Shown: positions 1,370-19,728, counted from the stretch's first letter. The stretch is DNA of 22,366 bases from a virus (IMGVR_UViG_2861079508_000002); one strand, 5' to 3'. Numbers and translations: made by a program. The notes: generated by a model not told the origin, from the letters alone.

Positions 1370-1747
1370 TTAGACGTGCTTGGAGAACAGGTAGCGTGCC
1401 ATCACTAAAACAATGCCAAAGACTTCAGCGAGGGTTCCCCCCATAAATAGGTTTATAACGAAATCACTAAAATGGAGCAGTTTTGCTCCAATAAGGACAA
1501 AAATCCCATTCATAACTAATAGCTGGCCTATCAGAATGCCGATAAACCACCGAGCAAACATTTTTTTCAGTTTTGTGTCTGTTTTTAAATCTTTTGTTTT
1601 TGCACGCTGATGGGCTTTGGCTGGATCCTCATCATTTAGATGTGTGAGGGTTTTTGCTGATGGTGATGAGCCAGAGGCTGGTTCACCTCTGGCTTGTCTT
1701 GCCGCTTGCTTTAGTTTTTCAGATATAGCGTAAGATCTAGACGTCAT
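1370..1747 (-). CDS. small membrane protein, basic hydrophilic N-terminus and two predicted C-terminal TM helices (125 aa)
   Basis: ATG at 1745-1747 lies 3 nt after the TGA of the upstream ImmA-like gene (translational coupling). Hydrophobic segments FIGILIGQLLVMNGIFVLIGA and LFMGGTLAEVFGIVLVMA. AT-rich. Confidence 0.5.
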   Translation of the reverse strand: MTSRSYAISEKLKQAARQARGEPASGSSPSAKTLTHLNDEDPAKAHQRAKTKDLKTDTKLKKMFARWFIGILIGQLLVMNGIFVLIGAKLLHFSDFVINLFMGGTLAEVFGIVLVMARYLFSKHV

Positions 1748-1750
1748 TAC

Positions 1751-2233
1751 TCATCGAAGCCCTAAATTCTTTAGGCGATAACGTATAGCATCATCGGATA
1801 CACCAAAATAGGAAGCCATCATTACTGGTGCATATCCTGCATTGTTGAGGCGTCGAACCTCTTTTTCTGGCATGAGAAGACATGCTGCAAAGTTATTGGC
1901 GAATATTTCTTCGCTGTCTACACCTTGGCTTGCCAGTTTTCCGCGGTAATCAACAAACTCATATTCAAGTGGCTGACCGTTCTCAGTTCGTTTGACGTAA
2001 TGCCCTAACTCATGCGCACACGTAAATCGTTTGCGCACGTTACTATCATTACGATTGAGTATGATTACTGGATCTTGTTCTGGCTCTTTCAGCAATGCGC
2101 CTGAAACATCATCATCAAGCGTGGTTTCAACAACATCCAACCCTAACTCATTGGCAATCCATACTGGATCAACCGGGAATTTCCTATCGCCCCAGATATC
2201 TTTCAAGAGGGCATGTGCAGATGTATTCGACAT
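1751..2233 (-). CDS. ImmA/IrrE-family (COG2856-like) zinc metallopeptidase (160 aa from the ATG)
   Basis: HEXXH motif in CAHELGHY, with a downstream acidic stretch typical of this family. The ORF-track start at 2239 is GTG; the ATG at 2231-2233 has GGAGG 5 nt upstream and is preferred. Confidence 0.7.
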   Translation of the reverse strand: MSNTSAHALLKDIWGDRKFPVDPVWIANELGLDVVETTLDDDVSGALLKEPEQDPVIILNRNDSNVRKRFTCAHELGHYVKRTENGQPLEYEFVDYRGKLASQGVDSEEIFANNFAACLLMPEKEVRRLNNAGYAPVMMASYFGVSDDAIRYRLKNLGLR

Positions 2234-2927
2234 GTTCACCTCCTTTGATTATGGTTAAATAGTCGAAATTTTCACCACTTCCCTTGTGGATATATTTACA
2301 TATAAAAGGTAACTAGTCACTAACCAACACAAATCTTTTTGAAGACAGATGGGGGGTGTTGAACGGTTTTTAAATGATTTCTTTGATTTTTAACAGCAAT
2401 AAGGAGCATTTTTAATGAAATTAGACGTTGATAATAACTTTTTGAGCAATCTTTACATATCATGGTAGCCTTCTATGCTGTTTTTCCAACTAAAAGATTG
2501 GCACATTTATCCGCTGGTAGTGGCGTTTTTTCGCCGCCAGCGCCTCTCTGGTTCCATTCCTTACATCTGTTCAAATTCAGCAACCCTTGCCGCGATCTTG
2601 CCGTTATCGAGAAGCTCTTTCGCTTTTCGGTTAATACTATCGGTCTTCATATTGCCAGCAGCATACGCCATCCGATAATTTCGATGCTACGCGCGCGTAC
2701 TTGTCGCAAAATATCAGGCAAAGGCCAGATTCAGAAAGTCGTGATAACCACCAGCACAACATGAGAGGTCATGTAACGCGATTTATCACACCAGATACAT
2801 GTGATTGGTGTACCCGCATAAAACATCGTCATAGCGCGTCCTGTGCGCATATACGCCGATAATCAACACATCACCACCACTCTGTCTTATGTAGAGAACA
2901 GTTTTATGGTGCTCCCCGCCATCGTGT

Positions 2928-3182: not shown

Positions 3183-3797
3183 GTGAGCAGAAAAGATACT
3201 AAAGAATTGCTAACTATCTGCATGGTGTACTTTTCAATTTATTTTTGTGCATACATGATAGTCCCAGACGAGTTTGAACATGGCAGTATTATTTATTCCA
3301 TAACATTCTATTTTTTAGAGCTAACACCAATTTTGGCTATCCTTTTGGCAATACATATTTATTTTTCCTTAAAAAAAGAATCGACTAATTGGGAGAAGGT
3401 ATGGAGAGACAGAGGATTTCTAACATCACCTAAAGATGATGCATATGAGAGTGATTTTTCTGACTTTATAACAAACTACTACTCCAGCGAACAATTCAAA
3501 AATAGACTGTCTGATGTTTGGGAAACAGCAATGTATTCCATAGGGATTACATTATTGATACTTACTGGTATTGCTCAATATGTTTTTAACATTGACTTAT
3601 CATTAAATCCTGAAAATTTAATATCGCCATTGATTTTTGGTGAGATATTGATCTTCTCATTCGGAATTTTCTTGAGTGTTGTTCTCTGCTCATTATGCAA
3701 ACTACTGACTAACAGGTATCCAGGTGAAGCAAGGAGAGCAAGAAAGGCAAATCCATATTATCTTTTATTTCCTAATGGAGACAGCAGAGATATCTAA
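3183..3797 (+). CDS. AT-rich predicted four-TM inner-membrane protein (204 aa, GTG start)
   Basis: GGGGG SD 5 nt upstream of GTG at 3183. Four hydrophobic segments (about residues 10-28, 36-61, 116-135, 148-176). Markedly lower GC than flanking DNA; convergent with the ejection-like operon. Confidence 0.55.
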   Translation: MSRKDTKELLTICMVYFSIYFCAYMIVPDEFEHGSIIYSITFYFLELTPILAILLAIHIYFSLKKESTNWEKVWRDRGFLTSPKDDAYESDFSDFITNYYSSEQFKNRLSDVWETAMYSIGITLLILTGIAQYVFNIDLSLNPENLISPLIFGEILIFSFGIFLSVVLCSLCKLLTNRYPGEARRARKANPYYLLFPNGDSRDI

Positions 3798-3816: not shown

Positions 3817-4159
3817 TTATTGAGCTTCTTTTTGTGATGCCTGTGCGACTCTGGTGAGCGATTGTGTGACCGTACTGATCGCTCTGTCATATGCTGTGCT
3901 ACCTTTTGGCGTATTTGCCAGACGTAACAAGGCATTTCGTATAACAGGGCTTTCGTATGCCTTCGCTGCTCCGCCTACGGCACCAGCAGCAGGAACAACA
4001 AACGCAGCCGTTTTTAGCATCCCCGCTAATACTGCTGCGTTTATGATGCCACCACCAACTAACAATCCATAAAGCTGCTGACCATTTAAGTTTTGAACGT
4101 TCGCTTTTGCCGCGTGTCTTGTATCGTTGAGGTATTTAATAACGCCGTCCAGTTCCTTT
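3817..4159 (-). pseudogene. 3' fragment (about 111 codons) of the gene split by the IS66-family insertion
   Basis: ORF-track ORF 3817..4191 runs into the IS; its first 11 codons are IS-derived. Frame is continuous with 6686..8456 once the IS and one TSD copy are removed. Confidence 0.75.
4152..4159. repeat. 8-bp target-site duplication GTTCCTTT, left copy
   Basis: Identical octamer abuts both IS ends (4152-4159 and 6686-6693). Confidence 0.8.
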
Positions 4160-4244
4160 GTAAGCGTAAACCGACCGCCGTATGTAGCCATTAGACAAGA
4201 ATTGGTAACTTAGACGCCCATCTGACACAGACGGACATCTAAGT

Positions 4245-4664
4245 ATGGAATTACAGGACTGGCGAAAAGAACCTCGTAAAAAGTATTCGAATGAATTCAA
4301 ACTTCGTATGGTTGAACTGGCATCACAACCCGGTGCTTGTGTGGCCCAGATTGCTCGAGAAAATGGCGTCAATGATAATGTTATTTTCAAATGGCTCAGA
4401 CTCTGGCAAAACGAAGGGCGTATATCGCGGCGTCTTCCGGTAACAACCTCTTCTGACACTGGCGTTGAATTATTACCAGTGGAGATAACGCCGGATGAGC
4501 CGAAAGAACCGGTGGCTGCTCTTACTCCGTCTTTATCCACCCAGACTACTGTCAGTGCCAGCTCCTGCAAGGTGGAGTTCCGTCACGGTAACATGACGCT
4601 GGAAAATCCTTCACCAGAGCTGCTCACTGTGTTGATCCGTGAACTGACCGGGAGGGGACGATGA
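4245..4664 (+). CDS. tnpA: IS66-family accessory protein TnpA (Orf1), 139 aa
   Basis: First ORF of the IS; overlaps the next ORF by 4 nt; size and position typical of IS66 orf1. Confidence 0.85.
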   Translation: MELQDWRKEPRKKYSNEFKLRMVELASQPGACVAQIARENGVNDNVIFKWLRLWQNEGRISRRLPVTTSSDTGVELLPVEITPDEPKEPVAALTPSLSTQTTVSASSCKVEFRHGNMTLENPSPELLTVLIRELTGRGR

Positions 4665-5011
4665 TCTCACTCCCGTCAGGCACCCGCATCTGGCTCGTTG
4701 CCGGCGTTACCGATATGCGTAAATCCTTCAACGGACTGGGAGAACAGGTACAGCATGTGCTGAATGATAATCCCTTCTCCGGTCACCTGTTCATCTTCCG
4801 TGGCCGACGGGGTGACACGATTAAAATCCTGTGGGCTGATGCTGATGGTCTGTGCCTGTTCACCAAACGCCTGGAGGAAGGCCAGTTTATCTGGCCTGCG
4901 GTACGTGACGGCAAGGTATCCATTACCCGTTCGCAACTGGCAATGCTCCTCGATAAGCTGGACTGGCGTCAGCCAAAAACATCCCGTCTTAACGCACTGA
5001 CAATGTTGTAA
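4661..5011 (+). CDS. tnpB: IS66-family TnpB (Orf2), 116 aa
   Basis: Second ORF, ATGA overlap with orf1; size and sequence character typical of IS66 Orf2 (recalled). Confidence 0.85.
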   Translation: MISLPSGTRIWLVAGVTDMRKSFNGLGEQVQHVLNDNPFSGHLFIFRGRRGDTIKILWADADGLCLFTKRLEEGQFIWPAVRDGKVSITRSQLAMLLDKLDWRQPKTSRLNALTML

Positions 5012-5041
5012 AAATGTCATGGCCGGATTATAAAAACGGTC

Positions 5042-6655
5042 ATGAGTCAGAAATACCTCATTCGGATCACTGAGCTGGAAAGGTTGCTCTCTGAGCAGGC
5101 TGAAGCCCTCCGTCAGAAAGACCAACAACTGAGTCTGGTTGAAGAGACGGAGGTCTTCCTGCGTTCTGCGCTGGCACGTGCCGAAGAAAAGATCGAAGAA
5201 GATGAGCGGGAAATAGAGCATCTGCGGGCCCAGGTGGAAAAACTGCGCCGGATGCTGTTCGGTACCCGTTCTGAAAAACTGCGTCGTGAAGTTGAACAGG
5301 CTGAAGCCCTGCTGAAACGACGCGAACAGAACAGCGATCGTTACAGCGGGCGTGAGGATGACCCGCAGGTTCCCCGCCAGTTGCGACAGTCGCGTCATCG
5401 TCGCCCGTTACCGGCGCATCTGCCCCGCGAAATAAACCGCCTGGAGCCAGAAGAAAGCTGTTGCCCGGAGTGTGGTGGTGAGCTGGATTATCTGGGGGAA
5501 GTCAGCGCAGAACAACTGGAACTGGTGAGCAGCGCCCTGAAAGTGATCCGCACAGAACGGGTAAAAAAAGCCTGTACAAAATGTGACTGCATCGTTGAAG
5601 CACCGGCACCGTCCCGTCCGATAGCGCGTGGTGTCGCGGGCCCGGGGTTACTTGCCCGCGTGTTAACGGGAAAATACTGCGAACACCTGCCACTGTATCG
5701 TCAGAGTGAAATCTTTGCCCGTCAGGGTGTCGAACTGAGCCGTGCGTTACTCTCCAACTGGGTTGACGCGTGCTGCCAGTTAATGACGCCGCTGAATGAT
5801 GCCCTGTACCGTTACGTGATGAACACCCGCAAGGTTCACACTGATGACACACCAGTAAAAGTGCTGGCACCGGGCAGGAAGAAGGCGAAAACAGGATATA
5901 TCTGGACGTATGTCCGGGATGACAGGAATGCCGGTTCGCCAGAGCCTCCGGCGGTCTGGTTCGCCTACTCACCGGATCATCAGGGGAAACATCCGGAGCA
6001 GCACCTTCGTCCCTTCCGGGGTATCCTGCAGGCAGATGCGTTTAATGGCTACGATCGGCTGTTCAGTGCCGGACGTGAAGGCGGCGCGTTGACGGAAGCA
6101 GGATGCTGGGCTCATGCGCGACGTAAAATCCACGATGTATATATCAGTACCAAAAGCGCGACAGCGGAAGAAGCCCTGAAACTAATCGGTGAACTGTACG
6201 CCATCGAGCACGATATACGCGGGTTACCGGTGTCTGAACGCCTGGCGGTCAGGCAAATGCAGAGTAGACCGCTCCTGACTTCCCTGTATAAGCTGATGCA
6301 GGAGAAAGAACACACGTTATCGAAGAAATGTCGTCTGGGAGATGCGTTCCGGTATATCCGGAAGCACTGGGCTGCGTTGTGCAACTTCTGTGATGATGGC
6401 CTGGCTGAGGTAGATAATAATGCCGCAGAAAGAGCGCTTCGTGCAGTCTGTCTCGGGAAGAAAAATTATGTGTTCTTCGGCAGCGATCACGGTGGCGAGC
6501 GTGGAGCACTGTTGTACGGGCTGATCGGCACCTGCCGACTGAACGGTATAGATCCGGAAGCGTATCTGCGCCATATCCTGGGTGTACTGCCGGAATGGCC
6601 TTCCAACCGTGTTGACGAGCTCCTGCCATGGAACGTAGCACTCACCAATAAATAA
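5042..6655 (+). CDS. tnpC: IS66-family transposase TnpC (Orf3), 537 aa
   Basis: Large third ORF with N-terminal coiled-coil-like region, Cys cluster CPECGG...CTKCDC and a long catalytic domain; ends 30 nt before the right IR. Confidence 0.9.
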   Translation: MSQKYLIRITELERLLSEQAEALRQKDQQLSLVEETEVFLRSALARAEEKIEEDEREIEHLRAQVEKLRRMLFGTRSEKLRREVEQAEALLKRREQNSDRYSGREDDPQVPRQLRQSRHRRPLPAHLPREINRLEPEESCCPECGGELDYLGEVSAEQLELVSSALKVIRTERVKKACTKCDCIVEAPAPSRPIARGVAGPGLLARVLTGKYCEHLPLYRQSEIFARQGVELSRALLSNWVDACCQLMTPLNDALYRYVMNTRKVHTDDTPVKVLAPGRKKAKTGYIWTYVRDDRNAGSPEPPAVWFAYSPDHQGKHPEQHLRPFRGILQADAFNGYDRLFSAGREGGALTEAGCWAHARRKIHDVYISTKSATAEEALKLIGELYAIEHDIRGLPVSERLAVRQMQSRPLLTSLYKLMQEKEHTLSKKCRLGDAFRYIRKHWAALCNFCDDGLAEVDNNAAERALRAVCLGKKNYVFFGSDHGGERGALLYGLIGTCRLNGIDPEAYLRHILGVLPEWPSNRVDELLPWNVALTNK

Positions 6656-6685
6656 GTATCAATACGGCACTCCGTTAACGCTTAC

Positions 6686-6693
6686 GTTCCTTT
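6686..6693. repeat. 8-bp target-site duplication GTTCCTTT, right copy
   Basis: Identical to 4152-4159. Confidence 0.8.
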
Positions 6694-8456
6694 CCATGTA
6701 CGCCTTTAAAGAAAGTTGCTGATTGCTTCCTGTTCCGGTGTAACGCATTAATAAACTTCTCAACACTGATATTTCCAGACGGATCAGTCGCCTTATCTAC
6801 AGCATTCTGAACTATGGCTGCTCGTGCGTTTTGCCTACCATTGTCATCCAGAAGCCTGTAAAGCTGAGAACGTTCTGATGGGCTTTGGCTAAAAACGAGT
6901 TTTGTTACATCCTCAGGCGTGGCCTTGCCGCTGGCTATTGCCTTTTGAACGCGCGTTCTTCCCATCATGTCATTGAATTTAGACCATGAGCGATCAACCC
7001 TTGCCATATTAATGGCTTCGTCTGCTCCAAGATTTTTGGCTACGGCTTTTTTCATATCCGCCGTATATGCCTTATAGATAATATCGCTGGCTTTCTGGAG
7101 CGTATCTTTATCAACAGTGTCAGATGACGCCATAAATCGCTTTCGAAGATCGGTTCTGTTTTCCCTCGCCAGACGCAGGTCATTTGGTCCGCTGGTGATA
7201 TCGTCTTTAAATTGCTGCAAGACTTTTACCGCGGCTCTATCCTGAGATTTACCCGGGCGGCTTAACACGGCAATCTGATTGTCGATAGCTTTTACCGTGT
7301 TTGAGAGATCGACAGGGGTATCCCCCATAGCGTCAATTATGCGGTTATATCGCTTTCCTGCTGCCTCAATGAATTTTTGTTGCCCTTTAGTCGCAGATTC
7401 ATAAAGCTGTTTATCAGAAATGCCACCCAGACCATCGCTAAATGTTCTGACTAAATTTTCTCGTGCTTGTTGTTGATTCAGCCGATTCTTACCGGTTCCA
7501 AAAAAAGGAACTCTTTCGCCTAATGTCTGAGCCTGACTCTGCATAAAGGTTTTATCTTTCAGCATGTCACTGGTCATTAACGGCAGATTTCTTTCCGATG
7601 CAAAGTCGACAGCAGCCTTTGCTTCAGGCGACATATCACCACGAACAGCCCTCGAAACCGCACTCGCTGTATTTTCCAGCCCCTTACCAATACCACCAAT
7701 GCCAGCAGAAATTACCGTTTGTAACGGATCAATATCTTCTCCACCAGCGAGGCTGGTGGCTCCCTGTAGTGCTAAATCTGTAGCTGCTGATTTCCCTATG
7801 GCCCCCAGCACCGTTCCGGCCCTGCCCGCTGGTGTAAACGCCAGCGCATTAGCCAGAAACGATGCCACGTCTTGCGGCGATAAACCCGGCTTGTTCAGAG
7901 CATAATCACCGGATGGCAGGGAAACGATAGTGTTACCCTTCTCATCCTGCCTTAATTTCGCTCCCATGCTCTGAAGAATCTTTTCCTGAGATGCGTCAGA
8001 GCCGAAAAGTTGAGACCATCGAGCTTTTAGAGCATCCATGCTGAGTGAGGTTAACTCTGGGGCAAGGTCGACATTTTGCAGTCTCTCCATCTCTGGAGTC
8101 ATTCGGCTTTCGCCTGTTATAGCATCGCGCATCGCAGCCCCAAGGCTGGCTCCCTGTTCTGCTGAACGCTCAAGCCCCTCTCTTTGCTGAGTAGCTAACT
8201 TTGCATACCCTGACGCAAGAGAATTATCAGATGATGTATGTTGAATATTTTGAGTTGCTGATTGGGATCGGTCTATTTCATTCGTTGATGGTAGTGGATA
8301 GGCAGCATAAAAAGCCTGCTTAGCCTGCTCTACACTTTCTCCGGCTTGCGGGGCCACGACTTCATTGAAGTATTGCTCCTGAGCCTGCGCTTTTTGTTCT
8401 GGTGCTAACGCCTGATACTGTGGAGAGGCGATAACATCTTTCCATGCTTTAGCCAT
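6686..8456 (-). pseudogene. 5' fragment (about 590 codons) of the IS-disrupted gene; large Gln/Ala-rich virion/ejection-like protein (P22 gp16-position)
   Basis: ORF-track ORF 6675..8456; its last 3 codons and stop are IS sequence. Start overlaps the upstream stop as TAATG at 8454-8458. Confidence 0.7.
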
Positions 8457-9877
8457 TAATCACCCCATAGTGAAGAAAAGTTACTGCTGGCTGCTGGCTG
8501 TGATACCTGCTCAGATTGCGGCAATGTCTGCGACGAAGAAGAAGTTCCTCTGTCAACTGCTAAAATAACCCGCAAAGCATCATAAGCTCGACCAGAAGCA
8601 GCTTTCAGCGAATTGAACTGGTTTTCCATCTTCCGGCGCTTGGTATCAATGGTTTTTGTGGAGTCGCCAGGCTGAGGGAAATACATTTGATAATATTTTG
8701 ACATTTCAGCAGGTACGATAGCTGCCCCTGTTTCCTGACGGAGTATTGCCATTATTGCGTCATTAGCATTAACAACGTATTGCTGCTCTGTTGGGCTGAG
8801 CGTTAAGTTAGCCAGCGTCCCATTACCCAAAGCATTATTAATGACCGCCACTCGCTGTGGGCTAAGCTGGTCTTTCAGTGTATCTATTGAATCAAGAGCA
8901 TCCCTAACCCTGTATGCAAATCCAGCAGCTTTTTTAGCCCCTTCTGGCGACTTTTCCATGATCTTTTGGGCTGTTGGCAAAGCTATTGGACGAAATCCAT
9001 CTCCAGATATTGGCTGGTTTAGTTTTCCCTGCTCTTCACTTCCGTCTGTGTAGTATTTTGTGACAGTGCCATCATCGTTTTCTCTAACACTCATTAATTT
9101 TTTGGCGTTTGTATTAATTCCAGCCGCTGCCGCAAATGCCGCCGCCCCCTCTGGATCCGCCTTTAACATTTGAGCGTACTGATTGTAATTCTGCATTGCT
9201 GCTGTTGGTGCATATGCTGACGTTAACGCATTTGCTCGGCTAATATCCTGCCCTCTCGCCTGAAGTGCTTCGCCAGCCTGATTGCTGCGGATTGTCTCTG
9301 CCAACTTGCCACGCTCAATATCCCGACCTTCCATTTGATCTTTGATATCGAAATACTTCTCATGACCGAGAGAAAACAGTGCCATACTACCAGCAAGCCG
9401 CTGGAACCCCTGTGGATCATTAACATGCATTTCGGCAACAGACTCAGGAGAAATTCCCAAGCGACGCATTTCATCTTCGTTATCTGCTATGAATTTTCCA
9501 AATGCCCCAGTTCCGAGCGAAGATGCGATTTGAGCACTAGTCGCAAGATGACCAATAGAATTTCTCTGGTCGTCATCAATAAAGCCCATCCCTTTCTGAA
9601 CGCTTTCAAATTCTTCTGGATACTCAGAAATAAGACTGCGCATTTTGTTTCTGTCTCCAGACTCAAAAGCCCCGGCATATGCTTTCTGAAACTCTGCTTT
9701 ACGCTGTTGTTGACGTGCCTGCTGATTAATCTCAGCAACGCCTCTTAGCCCCTGTAGCGCCATTAAACCTACGTTTGGCTGCTGCTGATACTGCACAGGC
9801 TGAGGAACGGAAGAACGAGGAGCATTATCATTTTGCGGTGCCATGCTAGGCAGCCCGCCAAGTTGCCATGTCGCCAT
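8456..9877 (-). CDS. 473-aa protein, candidate P22 gp20-like ejection protein
   Basis: Translationally coupled at both ends (TAATG). Size matches P22 gp20 (471 aa, from memory); Gln/Ala-rich. No profile search done. Confidence 0.5.
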   Translation of the reverse strand: MATWQLGGLPSMAPQNDNAPRSSVPQPVQYQQQPNVGLMALQGLRGVAEINQQARQQQRKAEFQKAYAGAFESGDRNKMRSLISEYPEEFESVQKGMGFIDDDQRNSIGHLATSAQIASSLGTGAFGKFIADNEDEMRRLGISPESVAEMHVNDPQGFQRLAGSMALFSLGHEKYFDIKDQMEGRDIERGKLAETIRSNQAGEALQARGQDISRANALTSAYAPTAAMQNYNQYAQMLKADPEGAAAFAAAAGINTNAKKLMSVRENDDGTVTKYYTDGSEEQGKLNQPISGDGFRPIALPTAQKIMEKSPEGAKKAAGFAYRVRDALDSIDTLKDQLSPQRVAVINNALGNGTLANLTLSPTEQQYVVNANDAIMAILRQETGAAIVPAEMSKYYQMYFPQPGDSTKTIDTKRRKMENQFNSLKAASGRAYDALRVILAVDRGTSSSSQTLPQSEQVSQPAASSNFSSLWGD

Positions 9878-10554
9878 TAGAATCCAAGCCCCCCAACAAG
9901 ACCAATAAGCCCACCACCAATAGCGCCGGCCGCAGTTCCTATTCCAGGAACAACGGAACCAAGTTGCGCACCCGCTAAAGCGCCTGATGCTGCCCCACCA
10001 ATACCACGCGCAAGACTGGATGGCTGCTGCGCCTGACCTGCACGAATAGCGCCAAGCCCCTGCAAGAGTTGTCCGGTATTATTGGCGTAGTTTTGCCCTG
10101 CCGTTGCCTGCCCTGATGCCGCATTCATCCCGACATTTAGCAGGTTTCCATAATTTTGCATTTGCCCACTAAGCCAATTGTTATAAAGCATGGGCGCAAT
10201 GGAAGATAACTGGTTACTGGTAGCTGTTGAGCCAAGCCCCCCGGTAGCTTCTGCTGAGACAAGGTTCTGATAACGGGCCTGATCTGCCTGTGTTTTATAT
10301 AAACCAGAACCAAAGAAATCATTCGCGGCTTTATTCTGCCCTTCCAGAGTCATCAGTCCTTGTAGTTGTTGTAAAGCAGGCAATCCGACTTCTGCATACG
10401 GCTTGAGATTATTCATCACCGTATTCCACTGCTCGCGCTGCAAATCAATTGCCTGCTGCTGGGCCTTCGCCTGAGCTTTAGAGGCACCACCATCACCGCC
10501 TTTTTCGTATACGGCACGATTGAGATGTTTATGAGCTATATGGGTAATTAACAT
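9877..10554 (-). CDS. 225-aa Gly/Ala/Gln-rich protein with glycine-zipper-like C-terminus, candidate P22 gp7-like ejection protein
   Basis: Start overlaps the upstream stop (ATGTTAA). N-terminal YEKGGDGGASK and C-terminal GIGGAASGALAGAQLGSVVPGIGTAAGAIGGGLIGLVGGLGF; size close to P22 gp7 (229 aa, recalled). Confidence 0.5.
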   Translation of the reverse strand: MLITHIAHKHLNRAVYEKGGDGGASKAQAKAQQQAIDLQREQWNTVMNNLKPYAEVGLPALQQLQGLMTLEGQNKAANDFFGSGLYKTQADQARYQNLVSAEATGGLGSTATSNQLSSIAPMLYNNWLSGQMQNYGNLLNVGMNAASGQATAGQNYANNTGQLLQGLGAIRAGQAQQPSSLARGIGGAASGALAGAQLGSVVPGIGTAAGAIGGGLIGLVGGLGF

Positions 10555-11009
10555 TCGCTGAATTCCTTATATTGTTGCCGAGTTAACTGATAAAGCGTTA
10601 CGCCGACGGGTTTACCACATCTGATATAAGCATCATCAAGGTGACCAACACGGGTAGCGCCAAGCAAACGGATAATTGCCCGTCCGTATTTCGTGGTGTC
10701 AGGAACCATGGTAATGCTGTTAAGGAATGGTGAGTTTTCGAGAAGCCATTTGCAGAATAATCGATGCCCTTGCAGTGCATATTCACCACGGAATCCGGGG
10801 TCGTACACCGCATGGCATTCAACAACGCTATGCCAGAAGTTACGCACTTCATGAACGCCAGCCAGCACCAATCCTTCGTAGATGCCGAGATATACCGCAT
10901 CAGGCTTGATGTAGTACGTGTGCCCCGGCTCAACAATATTTTCGGTATTGGCAGGCTCGTTAAGAAAGGCCTGTAATCGCACCGGGTTATCAATAAATTT
11001 TAGTTCCAT
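10548..11009 (-). CDS. 153-aa protein, first large gene of the operon (P22 gene-14 position)
   Basis: ATG at 11007-11009 with GGATGG about 10 nt upstream; stop overlaps the next start. Assignment by synteny only. Confidence 0.45.
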   Translation of the reverse strand: MELKFIDNPVRLQAFLNEPANTENIVEPGHTYYIKPDAVYLGIYEGLVLAGVHEVRNFWHSVVECHAVYDPGFRGEYALQGHRLFCKWLLENSPFLNSITMVPDTTKYGRAIIRLLGATRVGHLDDAYIRCGKPVGVTLYQLTRQQYKEFSEC

Positions 11010-11026
11010 GCGGTGCCATCCATTTT

Positions 11027-11188
11027 CACATACAGCCTGCCAGCGCCTTATCTATTAACCCTCGTGCAATTTCATGCAGAGTTGGCGCTACTCCAATTCC
11101 TGATTTTTTACGCTGCTCTTCCTGAATTTTCTTTATCGCTTCCATTTGCTTCTCACTTATCAATACCGGCTTTACTGAAATAGCCATA
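11027..11188 (-). CDS. 53-aa small protein, possible RHH/Arc-type regulator (below the ORF-track size cutoff)
   Basis: My own translation MAISVKPVLISEKQMEAIKKIQEEQRKKSGIGVAPTLHEIARGLIDKALAGCM; GGGGG SD 4-5 nt upstream of the ATG; TGA lies 16 nt before the next ATG. Minus-strand TATAAT at 11221-11226. Confidence 0.35.
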
Positions 11189-11280
11189 ACGCCCCCTTAG
11201 AACTGTATAAAACAACAGTTATTATAGTTTCACAAATCGCAATATTCATCATCGTAATTGCAAAATATGAAACAAATAGC

Positions 11281-11315
11281 ACAAAAAAATGCCACCGCTC
11301 AGTAGCTGGTGGCAT
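11281..11315 (-). terminator. Rho-independent terminator (8-bp stem ATGCCACC/GGTGGCAT, 11-nt loop, T6-7 run on the minus strand)
   Basis: Plus strand AAAAAAATGCCACCGCTCAGTAGCTGGTGGCAT; hairpin then T-run when read on the minus strand. Separates the primase island from the ejection-like operon promoter. Confidence 0.55.
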
Positions 11316-11681
11316 CGTTCTGTGTGTCAGGTTTTGACAGGTTTTTTATGGACTCTAAAAACTATATTTATGGTATCGCATTACTCTTCACGGCAGGCGC
11401 TTTTCAGTTCTGCCCTTGCTTCTGGCTCCATTGGTAATTTGATTCGCGATCAGCTATGCGGATGGTTTGCTGAACAGGCATAACAACATCTCAGAGGCTA
11501 TTTTTTGAACTACGAAAATTTCGTAGGTCTCTCCTTCAAAAACGTCACGCCCTTGTACACTGGATTTTACAAAAGTCTCGTAAAACTCTTTCCTGTTCTG
11601 GGCTATGTGCCAAACCGCAGCGAATACCTCCGTCTGCCAGATGAGCAAAACATACCTTATAAAGAAAATCGCTGTTTTTGC

Positions 11682-12936: not shown

Positions 12937-15291
12937 TTAAAAAACATCATAACCCCCCATACCGATCAGACGTGCAAACGCAGCCTGTAGAACTCCGACC
13001 TCTGGTAGTTCGTAGAACACGCCATTCCCACGGTCTGGTCTTCCATGCTTCACCAGTCCCATTTGTGCAAGTGATTTACCCAGTAGTGATCTGGCTGCTG
13101 GTTCTTTAAGCTTTTCCCCACGCTCAAGCGACCACGCTACAAATCGACTAACCATATCCTTTGCAAACAAACGGACTTCGCCATTAAACGGAGGTTCATT
13201 GATTAGCTCGCCATAAAGAAACAATTCAACGCCAGACAGCCCCAGCAAGATTTCTTCACGTAAGGCATCGGTCTGTGGCGCTCGTTGAGGGTCAAAACCT
13301 GAGAGATCCACCCCTTTAAGATGCCAAAGCAACTTTGCGGCACCGCCATCATTAAGCCAACTGTACAGCCGATCAAAATACTCCCGGCTCTGTGCTTTTT
13401 CAGGAGATGGCTCAAGCACGAGATAGCGGCGCTCTCTTATCCCTGCCTGTAATACCTGTGTGCTGTTACTGGCAAATATCAACCGGGCAAAATTCGGCAT
13501 TGGTTCAGCATCAATTCCCTTGCGCTCAAGGTTAAACGTCGGTTCGCTAATAATCGCTTTAAGTCTGTCAGCTTCAGACGGCTTGTGGATCGTCACTTCG
13601 TCAGCAAATACCAGTAGCTTGTTAGCAAGTATTGAATTGAAGCGCCCTGAAATATGTCCCGCCCCGTTAATGTGGGCGGCGTACTGCCCCAGTATTTGCA
13701 GCAGCGGTTTAACCGTTGTGCCTTTCCCTGTGCCCGGGACAGATTTCATCACGATTGCCACGGACGGTTTTTCATCAGGCTTTTGGATAATGTGCGCCAT
13801 CCACTGGATAAGATATTGGTATGCCTCTTCATTACCGGCACAGACAACCTGCAACAGGTGATTAAGGTATACCGTGCAATCTCCTTCAATTGGTTCCAGT
13901 GCCAGCCCCTCATACAGATTAAAAACATCGTCAGGGCATTTGTCTGGTACTGGATAAAATCCTACGCCTCCTGGCTTGTAGTTCTTCCCACTCCATGACA
14001 GCCACGCCGATCCCGCCAGCTTTCTGGCGACTCTCGGTTTATGATGAAAATAATGCTGAAATTGTGATAAATCCTCGAAAACGTGCGATACACCGCCGGT
14101 TTGAGAAGGCTTTAGCGACACCACCTTGTGTTTCCCGCCGATGGTGACATGCGTAAACGTCCGGTTGATTTCTTCGAGGACAGCAATTTCATCATCGCTT
14201 AACACCTCGCCAGAACTGATCTCATTCAGCGCCCCGACTGACTGTTTGTGATTTTTCACCTGCGCCCCTTTCCCCCGTGGCTGGTACATCGAATCTTTAA
14301 ATGCTGCTGTGGCTGCCGCCAGCCCGTGTTGTTGGTGATAGTCGTTCCAGTCGGCTTTATAGTCAGTCGGTGGCAGAGACACCCAGCCAGCTACGGAAAT
14401 AGCGGCCCTCTCTGCGGCATCTTTCCCCGTGTTGATCCCTCCACTTTCGGAGTTTCCTTGCTGGTGATCGTTATCTGCGGCAATGATGATTTGTGCCTGT
14501 GGATATGTTCTGCGCATGACTTCCGCTACTGGCAACAGGTTGCCAGCGTCGATTGCTGCCACTGTCATTGCGTCAGGGCGAATTAAATGGCACGACAGGG
14601 CGGTAGCCACCCCCTCAGCAATTATGATGCTGTGAGGTCGTTTCTGTGCGTTTATGGCGTGATATGCCCCCCGCTTTGCTGAACCTGTCAGGAGTCTTTT
14701 TTCACCATGTGAGGTAATTGTCTGTGCTGCTGTGACTGCGCCGGATTTATCCACCAGCGCCAGCAACAGAGATCCATCGGGCAACACGGGGAATGTAAAA
14801 TCACCTACCCCTTTCGCAACCAGATAATCAGATTTGCCGTTTACAGCCTTTCTGCGCATGTCATCAAACTGACGGGAAAACGTATCCCGTCTTTGTTGTT
14901 CGTCCTTCTCTGCCCTTTTCAGGCGCTCCTGTTCGCGTCGCTGGCGCTCGGTTTCCAGTTGTTCCCGTTTCTGGCTGGTGGCTTCTGGTGTTTCCGTTGT
15001 CCGGTAATCAATACCCAGAACATCAGCGGCAAGCAGCGCCGCCTCTGTTGTGTCGCAGTTATTTACGCGTTTAATTAAATCCAGCCCATCACCAGCGCCG
15101 CACTGATTACAGATGAAGCTACCGCGCCCGTTGTCATCGAACCGGAATCGATCTTTGCCCCCACATGCAGGGCAGGGAGCATGACGGCGCGGAGAGTCAG
15201 GGACATTTATGTTCAGGCAGCCCAGCACATGAGGCCAGTTGTTTTCAGACGCACTGATAACCTGACGGATAAGATCAATGTTTCGCATCAC
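12937..15291 (-). CDS. P4 alpha-type primase-helicase (784 aa)
   Basis: N-terminal Zn-ribbon CPACGGKDRFRFDD...CNQCGAGDG; central toprim-like region; C-terminal Walker A VPGTGKGTT. Architecture typical of P4 alpha / PICI Pri-Rep proteins. GTG start at 15291, ATG one codon later. Confidence 0.9.
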   Translation of the reverse strand: MMRNIDLIRQVISASENNWPHVLGCLNINVPDSPRRHAPCPACGGKDRFRFDDNGRGSFICNQCGAGDGLDLIKRVNNCDTTEAALLAADVLGIDYRTTETPEATSQKREQLETERQRREQERLKRAEKDEQQRRDTFSRQFDDMRRKAVNGKSDYLVAKGVGDFTFPVLPDGSLLLALVDKSGAVTAAQTITSHGEKRLLTGSAKRGAYHAINAQKRPHSIIIAEGVATALSCHLIRPDAMTVAAIDAGNLLPVAEVMRRTYPQAQIIIAADNDHQQGNSESGGINTGKDAAERAAISVAGWVSLPPTDYKADWNDYHQQHGLAAATAAFKDSMYQPRGKGAQVKNHKQSVGALNEISSGEVLSDDEIAVLEEINRTFTHVTIGGKHKVVSLKPSQTGGVSHVFEDLSQFQHYFHHKPRVARKLAGSAWLSWSGKNYKPGGVGFYPVPDKCPDDVFNLYEGLALEPIEGDCTVYLNHLLQVVCAGNEEAYQYLIQWMAHIIQKPDEKPSVAIVMKSVPGTGKGTTVKPLLQILGQYAAHINGAGHISGRFNSILANKLLVFADEVTIHKPSEADRLKAIISEPTFNLERKGIDAEPMPNFARLIFASNSTQVLQAGIRERRYLVLEPSPEKAQSREYFDRLYSWLNDGGAAKLLWHLKGVDLSGFDPQRAPQTDALREEILLGLSGVELFLYGELINEPPFNGEVRLFAKDMVSRFVAWSLERGEKLKEPAARSLLGKSLAQMGLVKHGRPDRGNGVFYELPEVGVLQAAFARLIGMGGYDVF

Positions 15292-15646
15292 CGTACCCCA
15301 CGTGGTCTATAGCGTTTGCGATATGGCTAACCAGCATCTGCCACTTGGTTATTCCGTAATCAGTCAGCATGCCATCATTGTTTAGCCACATATCAAATTC
15401 AGCGGTTGTCGCAAGTTTCCACTTATCGCCGTGGACAGTCCTCATTGCTGGGTACATGAATGCGCAAATCAGATCACAAACATCTGACGGCTTCAGAGAT
15501 GTAGTAATGGTGCGTCCCTCTGGCGTCTGAATTGCCATTTTCTCTTCACCAGTAGAATGAAGGTTATGAATCCACACAGCACCAGCAATCTTTGCCACCT
15601 GCTCTCCGATTGCGGAGCTAAGCGCCATTTCTGCATTTTCACGCAT
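15275..15646 (-). CDS. 123-aa hypothetical protein
   Basis: ATG with GGGAGG upstream; overlaps the primase start by 17 nt. Confidence 0.5.
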   Translation of the reverse strand: MRENAEMALSSAIGEQVAKIAGAVWIHNLHSTGEEKMAIQTPEGRTITTSLKPSDVCDLICAFMYPAMRTVHGDKWKLATTAEFDMWLNNDGMLTDYGITKWQMLVSHIANAIDHVGYGDAKH

Positions 15647-15980
15647 GAGAACCTCCCGCTACAGTTGCGCCCATGTCATTAACCATGCTTTGCCATATCT
15701 CACGCCCGACGTCAGTCAATCCGTCCTTAGTGACGCAACGCTCAATAAGCTCGATCCCCACGGTTTCCCACTGCGGGTAGAACACTTTCATGGCTGCCAG
15801 TGTGTAGCTATCGATCAGGCTGCGAACGCCTTTTACTCCATTGACGATTTCCACACGTACGGCCTCGCCGTCCGCATCAACCATGAAATAGTCCCCTCCG
15901 CTGGTGGAGGTAATGTGGTTATACAGTGCCGACGCATACTTATTTGCCAGCGCATTCAGTCGGAAATTTTTAGTAATCAT
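15639..15980 (-). CDS. 113-aa hypothetical protein
   Basis: ATG at 15978-15980 with GAGGA 7 nt upstream; stop overlaps the next gene start. Confidence 0.5.
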   Translation of the reverse strand: MITKNFRLNALANKYASALYNHITSTSGGDYFMVDADGEAVRVEIVNGVKGVRSLIDSYTLAAMKVFYPQWETVGIELIERCVTKDGLTDVGREIWQSMVNDMGATVAGGSHA

Positions 15981-15990
15981 GGTTCCATCC

Positions 15991-16593
15991 TCAGTGCGTC
16001 ACTGGTTCCGATGGCATGCCGTTTTCATTCAGTTCAGCTATAAAGCTGTTGTGAAGTTCAGCAAGCGTTTCACGACCAAATGGAGTCAGTGCTCCTTGTT
16101 CCACATCCATCATGGCTCTGTAGAAAATGATGGAGCGTTCTGTGCCAGACTCGATGCCAAAACGTTCTATCATCGCGCCCTCAATGTTGTTTGCCATAGC
16201 GAGGCGCTCTGCTACTGGATACAGCGGCATGGCAACGATGCCGTTGGAATAAACAGCCACTTCGGAAGGATTGCCAGTATCATCAATGATGCTGACAGTG
16301 CCGTTTTCCTCTCTCATTTCCAGCATGAATACTGTTGCGATCAGCCATCTCCACATAATGACGTTATGCTGTGATGTGTAATCGAAATATCCCTGGTTGC
16401 CGCCATCGGCTATAGCGAGATGTATTGACATACCTTCATCTGGTTTATCGTCATAATCCCCGGCATCCAGACGATTTACGGCATCAATATATGAGACGGC
16501 CTCAACGCGTTCTGTCATGCCATCGTTGCTGCGGCACATGATGTTTACGCCGTCAGGCGTTGCTTCTGCATGGAAAGTTAAGAAATTATTCAT
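15991..16593 (-). CDS. 200-aa hypothetical protein (preferred ATG at 16593; ORF track extends to 16698)
   Basis: The ATG at 16591-16593 forms an ATGAATAA overlap with the stop of the upstream ORF; the longer track version would overlap that ORF by about 110 nt. Confidence 0.5.
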   Translation of the reverse strand: MNNFLTFHAEATPDGVNIMCRSNDGMTERVEAVSYIDAVNRLDAGDYDDKPDEGMSIHLAIADGGNQGYFDYTSQHNVIMWRWLIATVFMLEMREENGTVSIIDDTGNPSEVAVYSNGIVAMPLYPVAERLAMANNIEGAMIERFGIESGTERSIIFYRAMMDVEQGALTPFGRETLAELHNSFIAELNENGMPSEPVTH

Positions 16594-16807
16594 GTTTCGC
16601 CTCGCCTGAATGATTCTGTAACTCATATTTGCCCAACAATTCGTCCGCTTCCTGAATAGCTTCTGGTACGCCATTGAGCAGTGACATAACCGCGCCAATC
16701 ATTAACTTGTCTCTGTTGCTTGGGCTGGCCCCTTCAAGCCAGAACCCTAAAACAGTCTGAACCTGTTCAATGCGACATTGCGCTTCAATGAGCTGGATGT
16801 TGGTCAT
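16586..16807 (-). CDS. 73-aa hypothetical protein
   Basis: ORF-track ORF, coupled to neighbours by overlapping stop/start. Confidence 0.45.
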   Translation of the reverse strand: MTNIQLIEAQCRIEQVQTVLGFWLEGASPSNRDKLMIGAVMSLLNGVPEAIQEADELLGKYELQNHSGEAKHE

Positions 16808-17067
16808 TTCGCACTCTCCACATCGATTAAACTGATATCTATCAGGGAGGTAACTTTTTGTAGCCAGCTATTGATTACTGTCGCCTGTTCCCCTCCCACC
16901 GAGGGAATAATCTCATTCATCACATGAACCAGACCTGTGCGCGCTCTGGTAAGCCGTTCAGTCGCGCAATCTGCGGGAGTGAATGTGTCTGGATATGGCT
17001 CTTCGCGCCCCAGCAATGATTCAATTTCCAGCTCACACGGATGACGATAAATTAAGTTGATATTCAT
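16804..17067 (-). CDS. 87-aa hypothetical protein
   Basis: ORF-track ORF, ATGA-type overlaps at both ends. Confidence 0.45.
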   Translation of the reverse strand: MNINLIYRHPCELEIESLLGREEPYPDTFTPADCATERLTRARTGLVHVMNEIIPSVGGEQATVINSWLQKVTSLIDISLIDVESAK

Positions 17068-17258
17068 TTTTCACCACCAAGAATTACCAGCTCTGCACGG
17101 GCATCGTTAACCAAAGATGAGCACGCTTTAATCGCATCCACGACATCAGCAGCGTCCATTTCTTCAGCCGAAAGACTGACAGCAACCAGGACAGCCGCTG
17201 CTTGCTCGATTAATTGAAGTGCGGACGTAAGGCGAGGGGTATTAATTGAGTTATTCAT
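17064..17258 (-). CDS. 64-aa hypothetical protein (preferred ATG at 17258; track start 17315 is GTG)
   Basis: ATG at 17256-17258 has GGGGG about 7 nt upstream and forms an ATGAATAA overlap with the upstream stop. Confidence 0.45.
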   Translation of the reverse strand: MNNSINTPRLTSALQLIEQAAAVLVAVSLSAEEMDAADVVDAIKACSSLVNDARAELVILGGEK

Positions 17259-17469
17259 TGGTTGCCCCCGTTTTGCATGGCATTTGTCCACCTTCCAGCA
17301 GGAAATGAACGTCACGAACGGCGAGATCCAATATCGCGAGTAACGCCTTCAGTTTTTCGTCTCGTGAGGGAGAGTTGCTCACCAGAATGTCATTAATCAC
17401 TTCTGTCAGTGTGATGATCTGGCTTGTGCGTTCGAGGGGATCCATATGCACATCGTAGGTTTTAATCAT
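17251..17469 (-). CDS. 72-aa hypothetical protein; may be an independent gene or the C-terminus of the long ORF from 18282
   Basis: ATG at 17467-17469 with strong GGAGGTG SD; balanced helical-looking composition (MIKTYDVHMDPLERTSQIITLTEVINDILV...). In frame with ORF 17251..18282. Confidence 0.5.
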   Translation of the reverse strand: MIKTYDVHMDPLERTSQIITLTEVINDILVSNSPSRDEKLKALLAILDLAVRDVHFLLEGGQMPCKTGATNE

Positions 17470-17656
17470 GTGCCACCTCCATGCGGATACGACCAGCAAA
17501 AAAGCAGACGTGATCGCGCACCAGAGAACGGCGAGCATCGCGTTCAGACTCGGCAGCAATATGATGAATTTTGGCGGTAATTGTCGGGCAATCGCGGCGA
17601 ACTGCGGCGATAATCCAGATAAATTGCGGTTTTTGGGTAGGGGTAGTAGCCAGCAT
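17462..17656 (-). CDS. 64-aa hypothetical protein, overlaps the long ORF in another frame
   Basis: GGAGG 7 nt upstream of the ATG at 17654-17656; stop overlaps the ATG of the 72-aa gene. Conflicts with the long-ORF model. Confidence 0.4.
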   Translation of the reverse strand: MLATTPTQKPQFIWIIAAVRRDCPTITAKIHHIAAESERDARRSLVRDHVCFFAGRIRMEVAHD

Positions 17657-18282
17657 GTGGCATCCTCCGATAACGTTGGCTTGTTATAACCACCGCAGAA
17701 GAGACCAATCTTGCTGGCGGTGGACTGTACGGAGTTGGCCTTACTGGCGTTATCGGAAACCAGCCTACCCGAAGGTAGCCCCATACAGCCCACCATTGAT
17801 AAGGTGTGCGTGTGCGCCGATACAAAAAAAGACGCTGGCGCGTCATGTATCGCCGATAACTCCAGCAGGAGGCCAATCCCGGCACCCGTTTTATGAGGTG
17901 CCTTATAACCATAAACCGTGTTGCCGCATAACGGCAAGCTCTTTTTTATGGACTCCGAAAACTCACTATTGGAAGAACCAGAAGCACAGTACATCGCGCT
18001 CATTTCGTTAACGTCACGCGCATGGACGAAGGTTTTTGTGGAGTCACTACGCGAGAAGAGAAAGCCATCTACGACCAGAAATTCTCTGGCGCAGCCGCTG
18101 ACCTTCTCAACGCTAACACCATCGACCGTAATTTCTGACATGGTTAAGGCATCCGCTCCTACCACCAGCAAATGACAAACTTTGCTTGTATCTGCTGTAT
18201 TAATGCCTGACTTTGCTGTCATATTGCTGGATTTTGGCGACATACCAGCCAGTGAAAATATCTTCTTCTGGACGGTTAGCAT
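17470..18282 (-). other. ambiguous stretch: upstream part of ORF 17251..18282 (strong GGAGG SD at 18282), no in-frame stop, contains terminator-like hairpins
   Basis: Start at 18280-18282 overlaps the upstream stop by 7 nt. Minus-strand hairpin GACGC-GCCA-GCGTC plus T7 at 17824-17844; plus-strand hairpin TTGCCG-CATAA-CGGCAA plus T6 at 17921-17947. Several frames open on both strands. Confidence 0.3.
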
Positions 18283-18458
18283 TTGTTAACCTCCGCGAAC
18301 TCCTTCATGAAACGTGCCAGCGGTTGTACGCATGGCGATTGATACCCGTCGCGATAAAACGTCACTCGGTTGTGAGACACGCTTTCGACAGTAACGAGTG
18401 CTCCGTGGGCATCTTTGTAGCGTTTTTGAGGTTGTGGTGTTCCTGTCGGCTTAAACAT
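18276..18458 (-). CDS. 60-aa hypothetical protein (ATG at 18458; track start 18545 overlaps the upstream gene)
   Basis: ATG at 18456-18458 with GGAGG upstream, 5 nt after the stop of the antirepressor-like gene. Confidence 0.5.
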   Translation of the reverse strand: MFKPTGTPQPQKRYKDAHGALVTVESVSHNRVTFYRDGYQSPCVQPLARFMKEFAEVNKC

Positions 18459-19284: not shown

Positions 19285-19296
19285 TTTCAGTCTCCG

Positions 19297-19728
19297 TTAG
19301 GCGGCGGTGAGATTGTCCGGGTATAGATTGAGAATGTCGGCAATTTCCTGCTGAGAAAGTCCGTTGTGATCATTTATGTTCGCAAGATGGTTAACATGAG
19401 TGATCACTTTCAGAACATCACCACGGCAGGAGAAACGGTAGCGAAGGTGTGTTCCGATACCATCAGGATTCTTTTCGTCGATACGCTCCAGAGTGATTCC
19501 AAGCTGGCGTTCTAACTCTGTTGCATAGTTACGACCAGAAGACAGACGGCAGTAGCGAAGAATGTCATTTTCTGTCCATCCCTCTATACCAGTACGCAGC
19601 ATATAGACTCTGGCACGATGCTTTTTCGGTGTGCGCTTTGGTGCTTGAAGGGATTTTGTCAGGGGCGTAACATCAGATACGCGAATATCTGAATTAGCCG
19701 CCTGTAATGGGCGGTTTTTCTTTTCCAT
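19297..19728 (-). CDS. 143-aa hypothetical protein, possibly DNA-binding
   Basis: ATG overlaps the alpA-like stop (ATGA); AAGGTGG SD. Basic N-terminus. Confidence 0.5.
   Translation of the reverse strand: MEKKNRPLQAANSDIRVSDVTPLTKSLQAPKRTPKKHRARVYMLRTGIEGWTENDILRYCRLSSGRNYATELERQLGITLERIDEKNPDGIGTHLRYRFSCRGDVLKVITHVNHLANINDHNGLSQQEIADILNLYPDNLTAA

Follow-up and report, generated by a model that had tools for sequence, protein, structure and literature searches.

An IS66-family insertion sequence splits a predicted P22 gp16-type ejection gene in a putative EcCIMP1-type satellite island

The insertion sequence and its ends

The window, i.e., the whole 22,366-nucleotide stretch of viral DNA that was analysed (IMGVR_UViG_2861079508_000002), carries a complete insertion sequence (IS) that separates one minus-strand gene into two parts (Table 1). 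The three open reading frames of the element have no internal stops and stand in the order tnpA-tnpB-tnpC, with the accessory genes upstream of the transposase, which is the IS66 arrangement; tnpA and tnpB overlap by 4 nt (ATGA). Pfam and NCBIfam matches were above the curated cut-offs for all three products, namely PF01527 (E = 7e-13) and NF047595 (82.8 bits, cut-off 74) for TnpA, PF05717 (E = 8.6e-37) and NF033819 (121 bits, cut-off 50) for TnpB, and PF03050 (DDE_Tnp_IS66; E = 3.6e-96, 322 bits, covering 2-283/284) and NF033517 (446 bits, cut-off 180) for TnpC, in which Pfam also identified the LZ_Tnp_IS66, zf-IS66 and DDE_Tnp_IS66_C domains.

The terminal inverted repeats, delimited by an inverted-repeat search and direct comparison, are 24 nt long, complementary at 20 of the 24 positions (83%), and both start with GTAAGCG. 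Imperfect terminal inverted repeats with a 5'-GTAAGCG start are the consensus for IS66/IS679 elements. Directly outside them, the two copies of the target-site duplication (TSD) are identical and the repeat stops at 8 bp, with no extension on either side; with both positions set by the IS ends, an exact 8-mer match would occur by chance with a probability of 4^-8, or ~1.5e-5. DNA alignment of five independent copies from other E. coli replicons placed their termini at the same bases as here, and each of these copies is flanked by an 8-bp TSD of its own, all of them different (CCTTATCC, TCCTATGT, GGAGAAAC, CTCCTGAA and GCCTTCAG). An earlier reading of this DNA, made from the sequence only, had given the limits of the element and of both TSD copies exactly, together with imperfect repeats initiated by GTAAGCG and three intact reading frames in IS66 order, and its placement of the IS ends agrees with the five independent copies.

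Based on the DDE transposase TnpC, the tnpA-tnpB order, the GTAAGCG repeats and the 8-bp TSD, the element belongs to the IS66 family. The three ORFs, the ATGA overlap, the TnpC domains, the repeats of ~24 nt, the 8-bp TSD and the length of 2.5 kb are all in common with IS66, IS679 and ISEc8; no structural difference to the family was found and the insertion site alone is new. For the assignment to a specific element, the NCBIfam search of the IS ORFs returned family-level models only, none of which names one. In the 90% protein cluster of TnpC, NCBI calls other members "IS66-like element ISEc43 family transposase", and from these names the element is probably ISEc43. The literature on ISEc43, which has once been reported inside another island gene flanked by an 8-bp direct repeat (PMC6531882), confirms the 8-bp repeats and gives no sequence or length.

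The element is widespread in enterobacteria. Full-length copies (query coverage 1-2526, 99.3-99.8% identity) are carried by numerous chromosomes and plasmids of E. coli, the best complete-genome copies differing from the present one by ~0.2%. The IS66 element is multi-copy in E. coli, with a median of 3 matching places per positive genome and up to 46. In a public protein collection, the exact TnpA, TnpB and TnpC proteins were found on 964, 162 and 128 contigs, respectively, those with TnpC representing many different sites. The copy in the window is apparently functional.

Table 1. Coordinates of the insertion sequence, the split gene and the ejection operon within the window
Feature	Coordinates	Strand	Details
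3' part of split gene	3817..4159	-	last 111 codons and stop; KE codons of the TSD repeated
TSD, left copy	4152..4159		GTTCCTTT
IS66-family insertion sequence, ISEc43-like	4160..6685	+	2526 bp
Left terminal inverted repeat (IRL)	4160..4183	+	GTAAGCGTAAACCGACCGCCGTAT
tnpA, IS66 accessory protein with HTH domain (HTH_Tnp_1)	4245..4664	+	139 aa
tnpB, IS66 Orf2-like accessory protein (TnpB_IS66)	4661..5011	+	116 aa
tnpC, IS66-family DDE transposase	5042..6655	+	537 aa
Right terminal inverted repeat (IRR)	6662..6685	+	ATACGGCACTCCGTTAACGCTTAC
TSD, right copy	6686..6693		GTTCCTTT
5' part of split gene, predicted P22-gp16-type ejection (injection) gene	6675..8456	-	590 native residues + RKR
gp20-like gene	8456-9877	-	PF16928 Inj_translocase, E = 4.5e-58
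gp7-like gene	9877-10554	-	PF25688 P22_gp7, E = 6.6e-73
DUF2824/gp14-like gene	10548-11009	-	PF11039 DUF2824, E = 4.2e-62

The interrupted gene and its operon

The IS lies in codons 588-591 of the gp16-type gene, antisense to it. When 4160-6693 are excised, minus-strand 6694-8456 becomes continuous with 3817-4159 in a reading frame of 2106 nt, encoding 701 aa with one terminal stop, in which ...FFKGVHGKE is directly followed by LDGVIKYL.... An in-frame product of about 701 aa with this very junction had been predicted in the sequence-only reading, and it is identical to the uninterrupted alleles: six complete E. coli genomes contain the gene with the predicted junction, 100.0% identical in DNA, and in the public protein collection exactly this protein of 701 aa occurs on 792 contigs under the name "injection protein".

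Pfam and NCBIfam searches of the reconstructed protein gave no match in either collection, and a sequence search for solved structures yielded none; the protein was placed using PHROGs and tblastn. Residues 19-700 align to 3-667/668 of phrog_770, "DNA transfer protein" (E = 3e-161), and residues 1-700 align in one piece with Sf6 gene 13 (E = 4e-79), ST64T gene 16 (E = 8e-75) and the corresponding gene of phage L, with identities of 31-33% to the proteins of these three phages. The closest phage copy is that of phage N7, with 67% identity over residues 69-701. Among sequenced phages, near-identical DNA is limited to the ~170 nt at the start of the gene, so the allele is known from islands and not from isolated phages.

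The genes upstream of the target (8456..11009) and the target itself are arranged on the minus strand as DUF2824(gp14)-gp7-gp20-gp16; the presence of gp7 and gp20 homologues directly upstream is the synteny expected of a P22 gp16-type gene. The split gene is the last one of this ejection-like operon, as had been read from the sequence alone, and the gene that follows (3183-3797, plus strand) is convergent. The full-length alignment and the place after gp14-, gp7- and gp20-like genes are shared with P22 gp16 and Sf6 gp13, of which the target is a full-length homologue; as gp16 in P22, it is located before a SieA-like gene. It differs from both in being encoded by a satellite island rather than by a phage and, in the window, in being cut at residue 590.

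The island carrying the split gene

In comparison with K-12, ~20.2 kb are found between yicC and dinD, and the homology to K-12 ends at the yicC stop, where the overlap is only 6 bp. A 12-bp direct repeat, GGTGTACATAAT, found near both island ends in NZ_AP045773.1, was considered as the att site and rejected, as both copies lie inside the island. Based on Pfam and the RefSeq annotation of an identical island, integrase, AlpA regulator and primase follow each other in this order, and no capsid, tail or lysis genes are present. At the DNA level, the window matches EcCIMP1 in two blocks (~7.4 kb), with 98% identity over 9717-11592 and 94% over 14267-19738. EcCIMP1 is a phage-inducible chromosomal island (PICI) of E. 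coli MP1 and is mobilised by the P22-like phage Kapi1 (Pick, Stadel & Raivio, ISME J 2025, PMC11773190).

The gene order is common to the two islands, from int, AlpA, AntA/AntB, DUF4222, Ash, small ORFs and primase on to DUF2824, gp7-like, gp20-like, third ejection gene and PerC, and capsid, tail and lysis genes are missing from both. However, the integrases differ, and so do the locations, yicC-dinD for the island in the window and tRNA-Thr near proA for EcCIMP1. The C-terminal part of the primase is DUF5906 in the former and DUF927 in the latter, and the third ejection gene is a different allele, encoding 701 aa here, whereas that of EcCIMP1 encodes 906 aa and is annotated with a lytic transglycosylase domain. 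In addition, the accessory genes are unlike those of EcCIMP1, and the copy in the window carries the IS. Judged by gene content and DNA identity, the host element is best described as an EcCIMP1-type PICI satellite of ~20 kb and not as a P22-like prophage; its length agrees with the ~10-20 kb of such satellites. Helper-dependent excision, packaging and transfer have been proven experimentally for EcCIMP1 with Kapi1 alone (PMC11773190).

Origin, age and effect of the insertion

The structure of the locus is almost certainly the result of the transposition of a full-length IS66-family element into the gp16-type gene of an EcCIMP1-type island, by which the gene was cut short. As expected from the family, the DDE transposase TnpC, together with TnpA and TnpB, would have made a staggered 8-bp cut in the target, and its repair would have produced the duplication of GTTCCTTT; staggered cuts of 8 bp are typical of IS66 elements. 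The empty site is known from NZ_AP045773.1 (strain 23CRST013), where a single TSD copy is present and the alignments of the two flanks overlap by 8 bp; strain 2016C-3878 has an empty site as well. After removal of the IS and one TSD copy, the window is 100.000% identical to this sequence over 19,832 bp, with neither mismatch nor gap, and since the flanks do not show any difference from 23CRST013, the IS is the only one. The left IS junction, in turn, had zero matches in 5,426 complete E. coli genomes and is absent from the GTDB species representatives, so it could serve as a strain or lineage marker; the ten places listed from the 22 contigs read among those with the exact TnpC are all at other sites. 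The suggestion of a recent insertion, previously made from the intact TSD and transposase genes, is upheld by these comparisons, and on the scale of island divergence the event is very recent.

The interrupted gene ends at a TAA stop (6675-6677, minus strand) supplied by the IRR, and the truncated product consists of 590 native residues followed by Arg-Lys-Arg (593 aa), the last 111 of the 701 residues being lost. According to hydropathy, the sole strongly hydrophobic stretch of the protein comprises residues ~617-650, in the lost 3' part, and this segment is probably membrane-inserting. Of the proposal that the insertion had inactivated the gene, the truncation at residue 590 of 701 and the removal of the hydrophobic segment were observed; from these, we infer that gp16 function is lost through the insertion, although some activity might remain with the N-terminal product of 590 residues. 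A search of the public protein collection for the truncated protein found none. The insertion has no polar victim, as the gene that follows is convergent.

Instead of being lost, the function might have changed, with the truncated gp16 packaged as a dominant-negative protein or the C-terminal hydrophobic fragment expressed alone. A mechanically called ORF (3817-4191, 124 aa) starts at an in-frame ATG inside the IRL and includes the hydrophobic segment, and EcCIMP1 contributes to immunity against superinfection (PMC11773190). It is thus conceivable, with very little probability, that a truncated gp16, competent for assembly and defective in ejection, poisons the virions of P22-like helpers, or that the C-terminal fragment, freed as a small membrane protein, blocks incoming DNA, either of which would make it an anti-phage interference factor created by an IS. 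However, no sigma-70-like promoter site was found upstream of the ATG in the IRL, the ORF being purely mechanical, and an outward IRL promoter driving the C-terminal fragment was rejected, as there is no consensus site. Moreover, the allele is unique, being present in none of the 5,426 complete genomes, and thus shows no sign of spread or selection. A change of function is therefore regarded as highly improbable.

Even less probable is an old insertion, or one into a long-dead, already decaying pseudogene of a degraded prophage remnant, although the PGAP annotation calls the uninterrupted allele of NZ_AP045773.1 a pseudogene ("missing C-terminus") and genes for capsid, tail and lysis are missing from the island. 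In its uninterrupted form, the gene is an intact ORF of 701 aa whose exact product is that found on the 792 contigs, and it can be aligned over its full length with phage gp16 proteins; a gene-poor island, on the other hand, fits the experimentally mobilised satellite type EcCIMP1 and not a decayed prophage. An old event is also opposed by the perfect TSD, the three intact IS ORFs and the flanks without a single substitution over 19.8 kb in relation to the empty-site island, and an old or decaying origin is largely refuted. Lastly, a copy misplaced by an error in repeat resolution has to be considered, as multi-copy elements such as IS66 in E. coli are the usual cause of misjoins, yet it is just as improbable, since a misjoin would neither place an exact 8-bp target duplication on either side of a complete element nor keep the flanks perfectly collinear with the empty site.

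The insertion is real, recent and ordinary, an event of a known and well-understood kind, and its importance beyond annotation is small. For annotation, the two gene parts belong to a single disrupted "injection protein" gene, and the region is a predicted PICI rather than an incomplete prophage. The locus also provides a clean example of IS66-family transposition for which the exact empty site is known in another strain, and the natural truncation of the third ejection gene could show whether a satellite needs its own gp16 for transduction by P22-like helpers.

Ends and identity of the inserted element

The sequence-only reading had described an IS66-family element with imperfect inverted repeats beginning GTAAGCG, three intact ORFs in IS66 order and a perfect 8-bp target-site duplication (TSD), and all of these features were recovered on recomputation and by the Pfam and NCBIfam IS66 models (see table). 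The match between the two TSD copies extends 0 bases further on either side, the chance of an exact 8-mer match at two positions set by the element ends being 4^-8 (~1.5e-5), and the inverted repeats were also recovered independently by a repeat finder (pair I2). All three proteins score above the cut-offs of the curated NCBIfam IS66 models (TnpA, TnpB and transposase), with the DDE_Tnp_IS66 match spanning 2-283 of 284 profile positions. In the public protein collection, the exact TnpA sequence is present on 964 contigs, that of TnpB on 162 and that of TnpC on 128; these are, therefore, common protein forms, not decayed ones.

Features of the insertion and its surroundings in the window
Feature	Coordinates	Strand	Description
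IS element	4160-6685		2526 bp, between the two TSD copies
TSD	4152-4159 = 6686-6693		GTTCCTTT
Terminal inverted repeats			24 nt, 20 matches; GTAAGCGTAAACCGACCGCCGTAT / GTAAGCGTTAACGGAGTGCCGTAT
IS ORF 1 (tnpA)	4245-4664	+	HTH_Tnp_1 (Pfam); IS66 TnpA model NF047595 (NCBIfam)
IS ORF 2 (tnpB)	4661-5011	+	TnpB_IS66 (Pfam); overlaps ORF 1 by ATGA
IS ORF 3 (tnpC)	5042-6655	+	LZ_Tnp_IS66, zf-IS66, DDE_Tnp_IS66, DDE_Tnp_IS66_C (Pfam)
Split ejection gene (gp16)	6694-8456 joined to 3817-4159	-	
124-aa ORF	3817-4191	-	mechanical ORF
SieA-like ORF	3183-3797	+	204 aa, membrane, multi-hydrophobic, convergent on gp16
Metallopeptidase and following ORF	1370-2239	-	162-aa ImmA/IrrE (PF06114), then 125-aa ORF with hydrophobic C-terminal half

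A megablast search of 5,426 complete E. coli genomes returned full-length copies (query 1-2526, 99.3-99.8% identity) on chromosomes and plasmids. Five independent copies were taken with 60-bp flanks and aligned to both ends in the window. In all five, identity starts exactly at GTAAGCG (window 4160) and stops exactly at CGCTTAC (window 6685), the flanks are unrelated, and the 8-bp duplication differs from copy to copy (CCTTATCC, TCCTATGT, GGAGAAAC, CTCCTGAA and GCCTTCAG); two of the copies interrupt recognizable genes, one of them tnsE and the other the transposase gene of an IS21 element. The agreement of the five copies shows that both the termini and the length of the duplication are intrinsic to the element and not a coincidence of the window. 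Several members of the TnpC 90% cluster bear the NCBI name "IS66-like element ISEc43 family transposase," and ISEc43 has been reported within an SGI1 gene with an 8-bp direct repeat at its flanks (PMC6531882); the cluster names provide a lead for calling the element ISEc43-like. Two copies of the IS, possibly a single shared insertion, lie in or directly adjoining PerC-family regulator genes (L006 1-60, NZ_CM135810.1; L010 1601-2120, GCA_019300155.1), which suggests that the element is frequent in PICI-like islands.

The interrupted ejection gene and its product

Excising 4160-6693 yields an ORF of 2106 nt (701 codons) on the minus strand, in which ...FFKGVHGKE is joined to LDGVIKYL..., the junction predicted beforehand. 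Uninterrupted homologues carrying it do exist: six complete E. coli genomes contain a gene that equals the reconstructed DNA from end to end (100.0% identity), 132 records match it at 99% or more, and the exact protein is found on 792 contigs of the public protein collection, named "injection protein." Residues 19-700 match PHROG 770, "DNA transfer protein" (profile 3-667/668, E 3e-161), and residues 1-700 align in one piece, at 31-33% identity and with E values as low as 8e-75, with Sf6 gene 13, ST64T gene 16 and the injection protein of phage L. The nearest phage copy is that of Escherichia phage N7 (67% over residues 69-701), and Pfam, NCBIfam and PDB sequence searches with the 701-aa protein gave no match. 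Upstream on the same strand are homologues of P22 gp20 (Inj_translocase), gp7 (P22_gp7) and gp14 (DUF2824), and the downstream ORF is convergent. As proposed, the split gene is the last of an ejection-like operon, so there is no co-directional gene beyond it on which the IS could have a polar effect. In E. coli 23CRST013 (NZ_AP045773.1; L001 9291-11106), PGAP calls the 100% identical uninterrupted allele a pseudogene ("missing C-terminus") with the 701-codon ORF intact, and other genomes label it "injection protein" or "hypothetical protein"; the call looks like an annotation artefact caused by a shorter P22-gp16 model.

Translation of the interrupted gene now runs through 590 native residues, adds Arg-Lys-Arg and stops at a TAA within the right inverted repeat. 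Kyte-Doolittle hydropathy exceeds 1.6 in a single stretch of the protein (hydropathy-window centres 626-640, roughly residues 617-650), which lies within the 111 residues lost. P22 gp16 is a membrane-associating ejection protein required for DNA to reach the cytoplasm, and thus losing this hydrophobic C-terminal segment would probably abolish function. Of the earlier statement that the gene was inactivated, the truncation is observed directly, while loss of function is its probable consequence. The 124-aa ORF has its ATG inside the left inverted repeat (MATYGGRFTLTKELDGV...) and continues, in frame, into the C-terminal fragment of gp16 that carries the hydrophobic segment; as no sigma-70-like site was found upstream, it was given no weight as an expressed product.

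A young insertion in a PICI satellite

Once the IS and one TSD copy are taken out, the remaining 19,832 bp of the window match NZ_AP045773.1 5180252-5200083 (E. coli 23CRST013) at 100.000% identity, with 0 mismatches and gaps, and the alignments of the two flanks share exactly 8 bp, the target site. The left junction is absent from the 5,426 complete E. coli genomes, where no place covers at least 80% of a 601-bp probe (best, 53%), and from the GTDB species representatives; likewise, the public protein collection has no entry for the truncated protein. Given the identical empty site, the junction absent elsewhere, the perfect TSD and the intact transposition genes, sequence comparison shows a very young insertion relative to island divergence. 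The earlier observation is confirmed in full and its interpretation as a recent insertion supported, with two refinements: the element carrying the split gene is a PICI satellite, not a prophage, and inactivation is the probable outcome of a truncation. This is a routine IS insertion: only its site is new, since the IS itself, the family to which the target gene belongs and the type of island were already known. The junction is modestly useful as a strain marker, and the truncated gp16 is a natural knock-out for asking what purpose a satellite's own ejection proteins serve.

The window (1-22366) lies entirely within an ~20.2-kb EcCIMP1-type island, which comparison with K-12 places between yicC and dinD, directly adjoining the stop codon of yicC. 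Domain scans, together with RefSeq annotation of the identical island, give the order integrase, 321-aa protein, AlpA-type HTH, PM1773-family protein, AntA/AntB antirepressor, DUF4222, Ash-family protein, several small ORFs, 784-aa zinc-ribbon/Toprim/DUF5906 primase, two further proteins, DUF2824, gp7, gp20, gp16, SieA-like ORF, ImmA/IrrE peptidase, two further proteins and PerC, with no capsid, tail, terminase or lysis genes; the part from DUF2824 (gp14) to the SieA-like ORF is a P22-like block. A 12-bp direct repeat, GGTGTACATAAT, occurs at NZ_AP045773.1 5180183 and 5200159 (the second 76 bp past the left edge of the window), ~120 bp and ~80 bp inside the respective island ends, with ~0.02 chance matches expected in the stretches searched; it was ruled out as the chromosomal junction, where, in the K-12 comparison, the overlap at the yicC stop amounts to just 6 bp.

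EcCIMP1, from E. coli MP1, is a phage-inducible chromosomal island that excises only upon induction of the P22-like phage Kapi1 and is transduced by it; the DUF2824 and "DNA transfer" genes 3' of its primase were remarked on by its authors (PMC11773190). It has the same architecture as the window island, with 98% identity over window 9717-11592 and 94% over window 14267-19738, but differs in the integrase, gp16, the accessory genes and the C-terminal parts of the primase and gp20. Based on these blocks of 94-98% identity and the differing genes, the window island is a mosaic relative of this published satellite type. The mosaic breakpoint lies inside gp20, given the 98% identity of the adjacent gp7 and DUF2824 genes. 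The third ejection gene encodes 906 aa with an annotated lytic transglycosylase domain in EcCIMP1 (NZ_CP139039.1; L008 13481-16201), compared with 701 aa without such a Pfam domain in the window, and is an allelic cassette.

The SieA-like ORF has a weak match (phrog_7745, E 1.9e-4) to superinfection exclusion proteins of the SieA type and occupies the position of sieA after gene 16 in P22, making it a candidate for the superinfection immunity reported for EcCIMP1. A PADLOC scan of eight island proteins of unassigned or accessory function gave no match besides a CapP-like one, the best match of the ImmA/IrrE metallopeptidase (E 4.9e-25); together with the 125-aa ORF, this peptidase could form a regulatory or defence-associated pair at the accessory end of the island.
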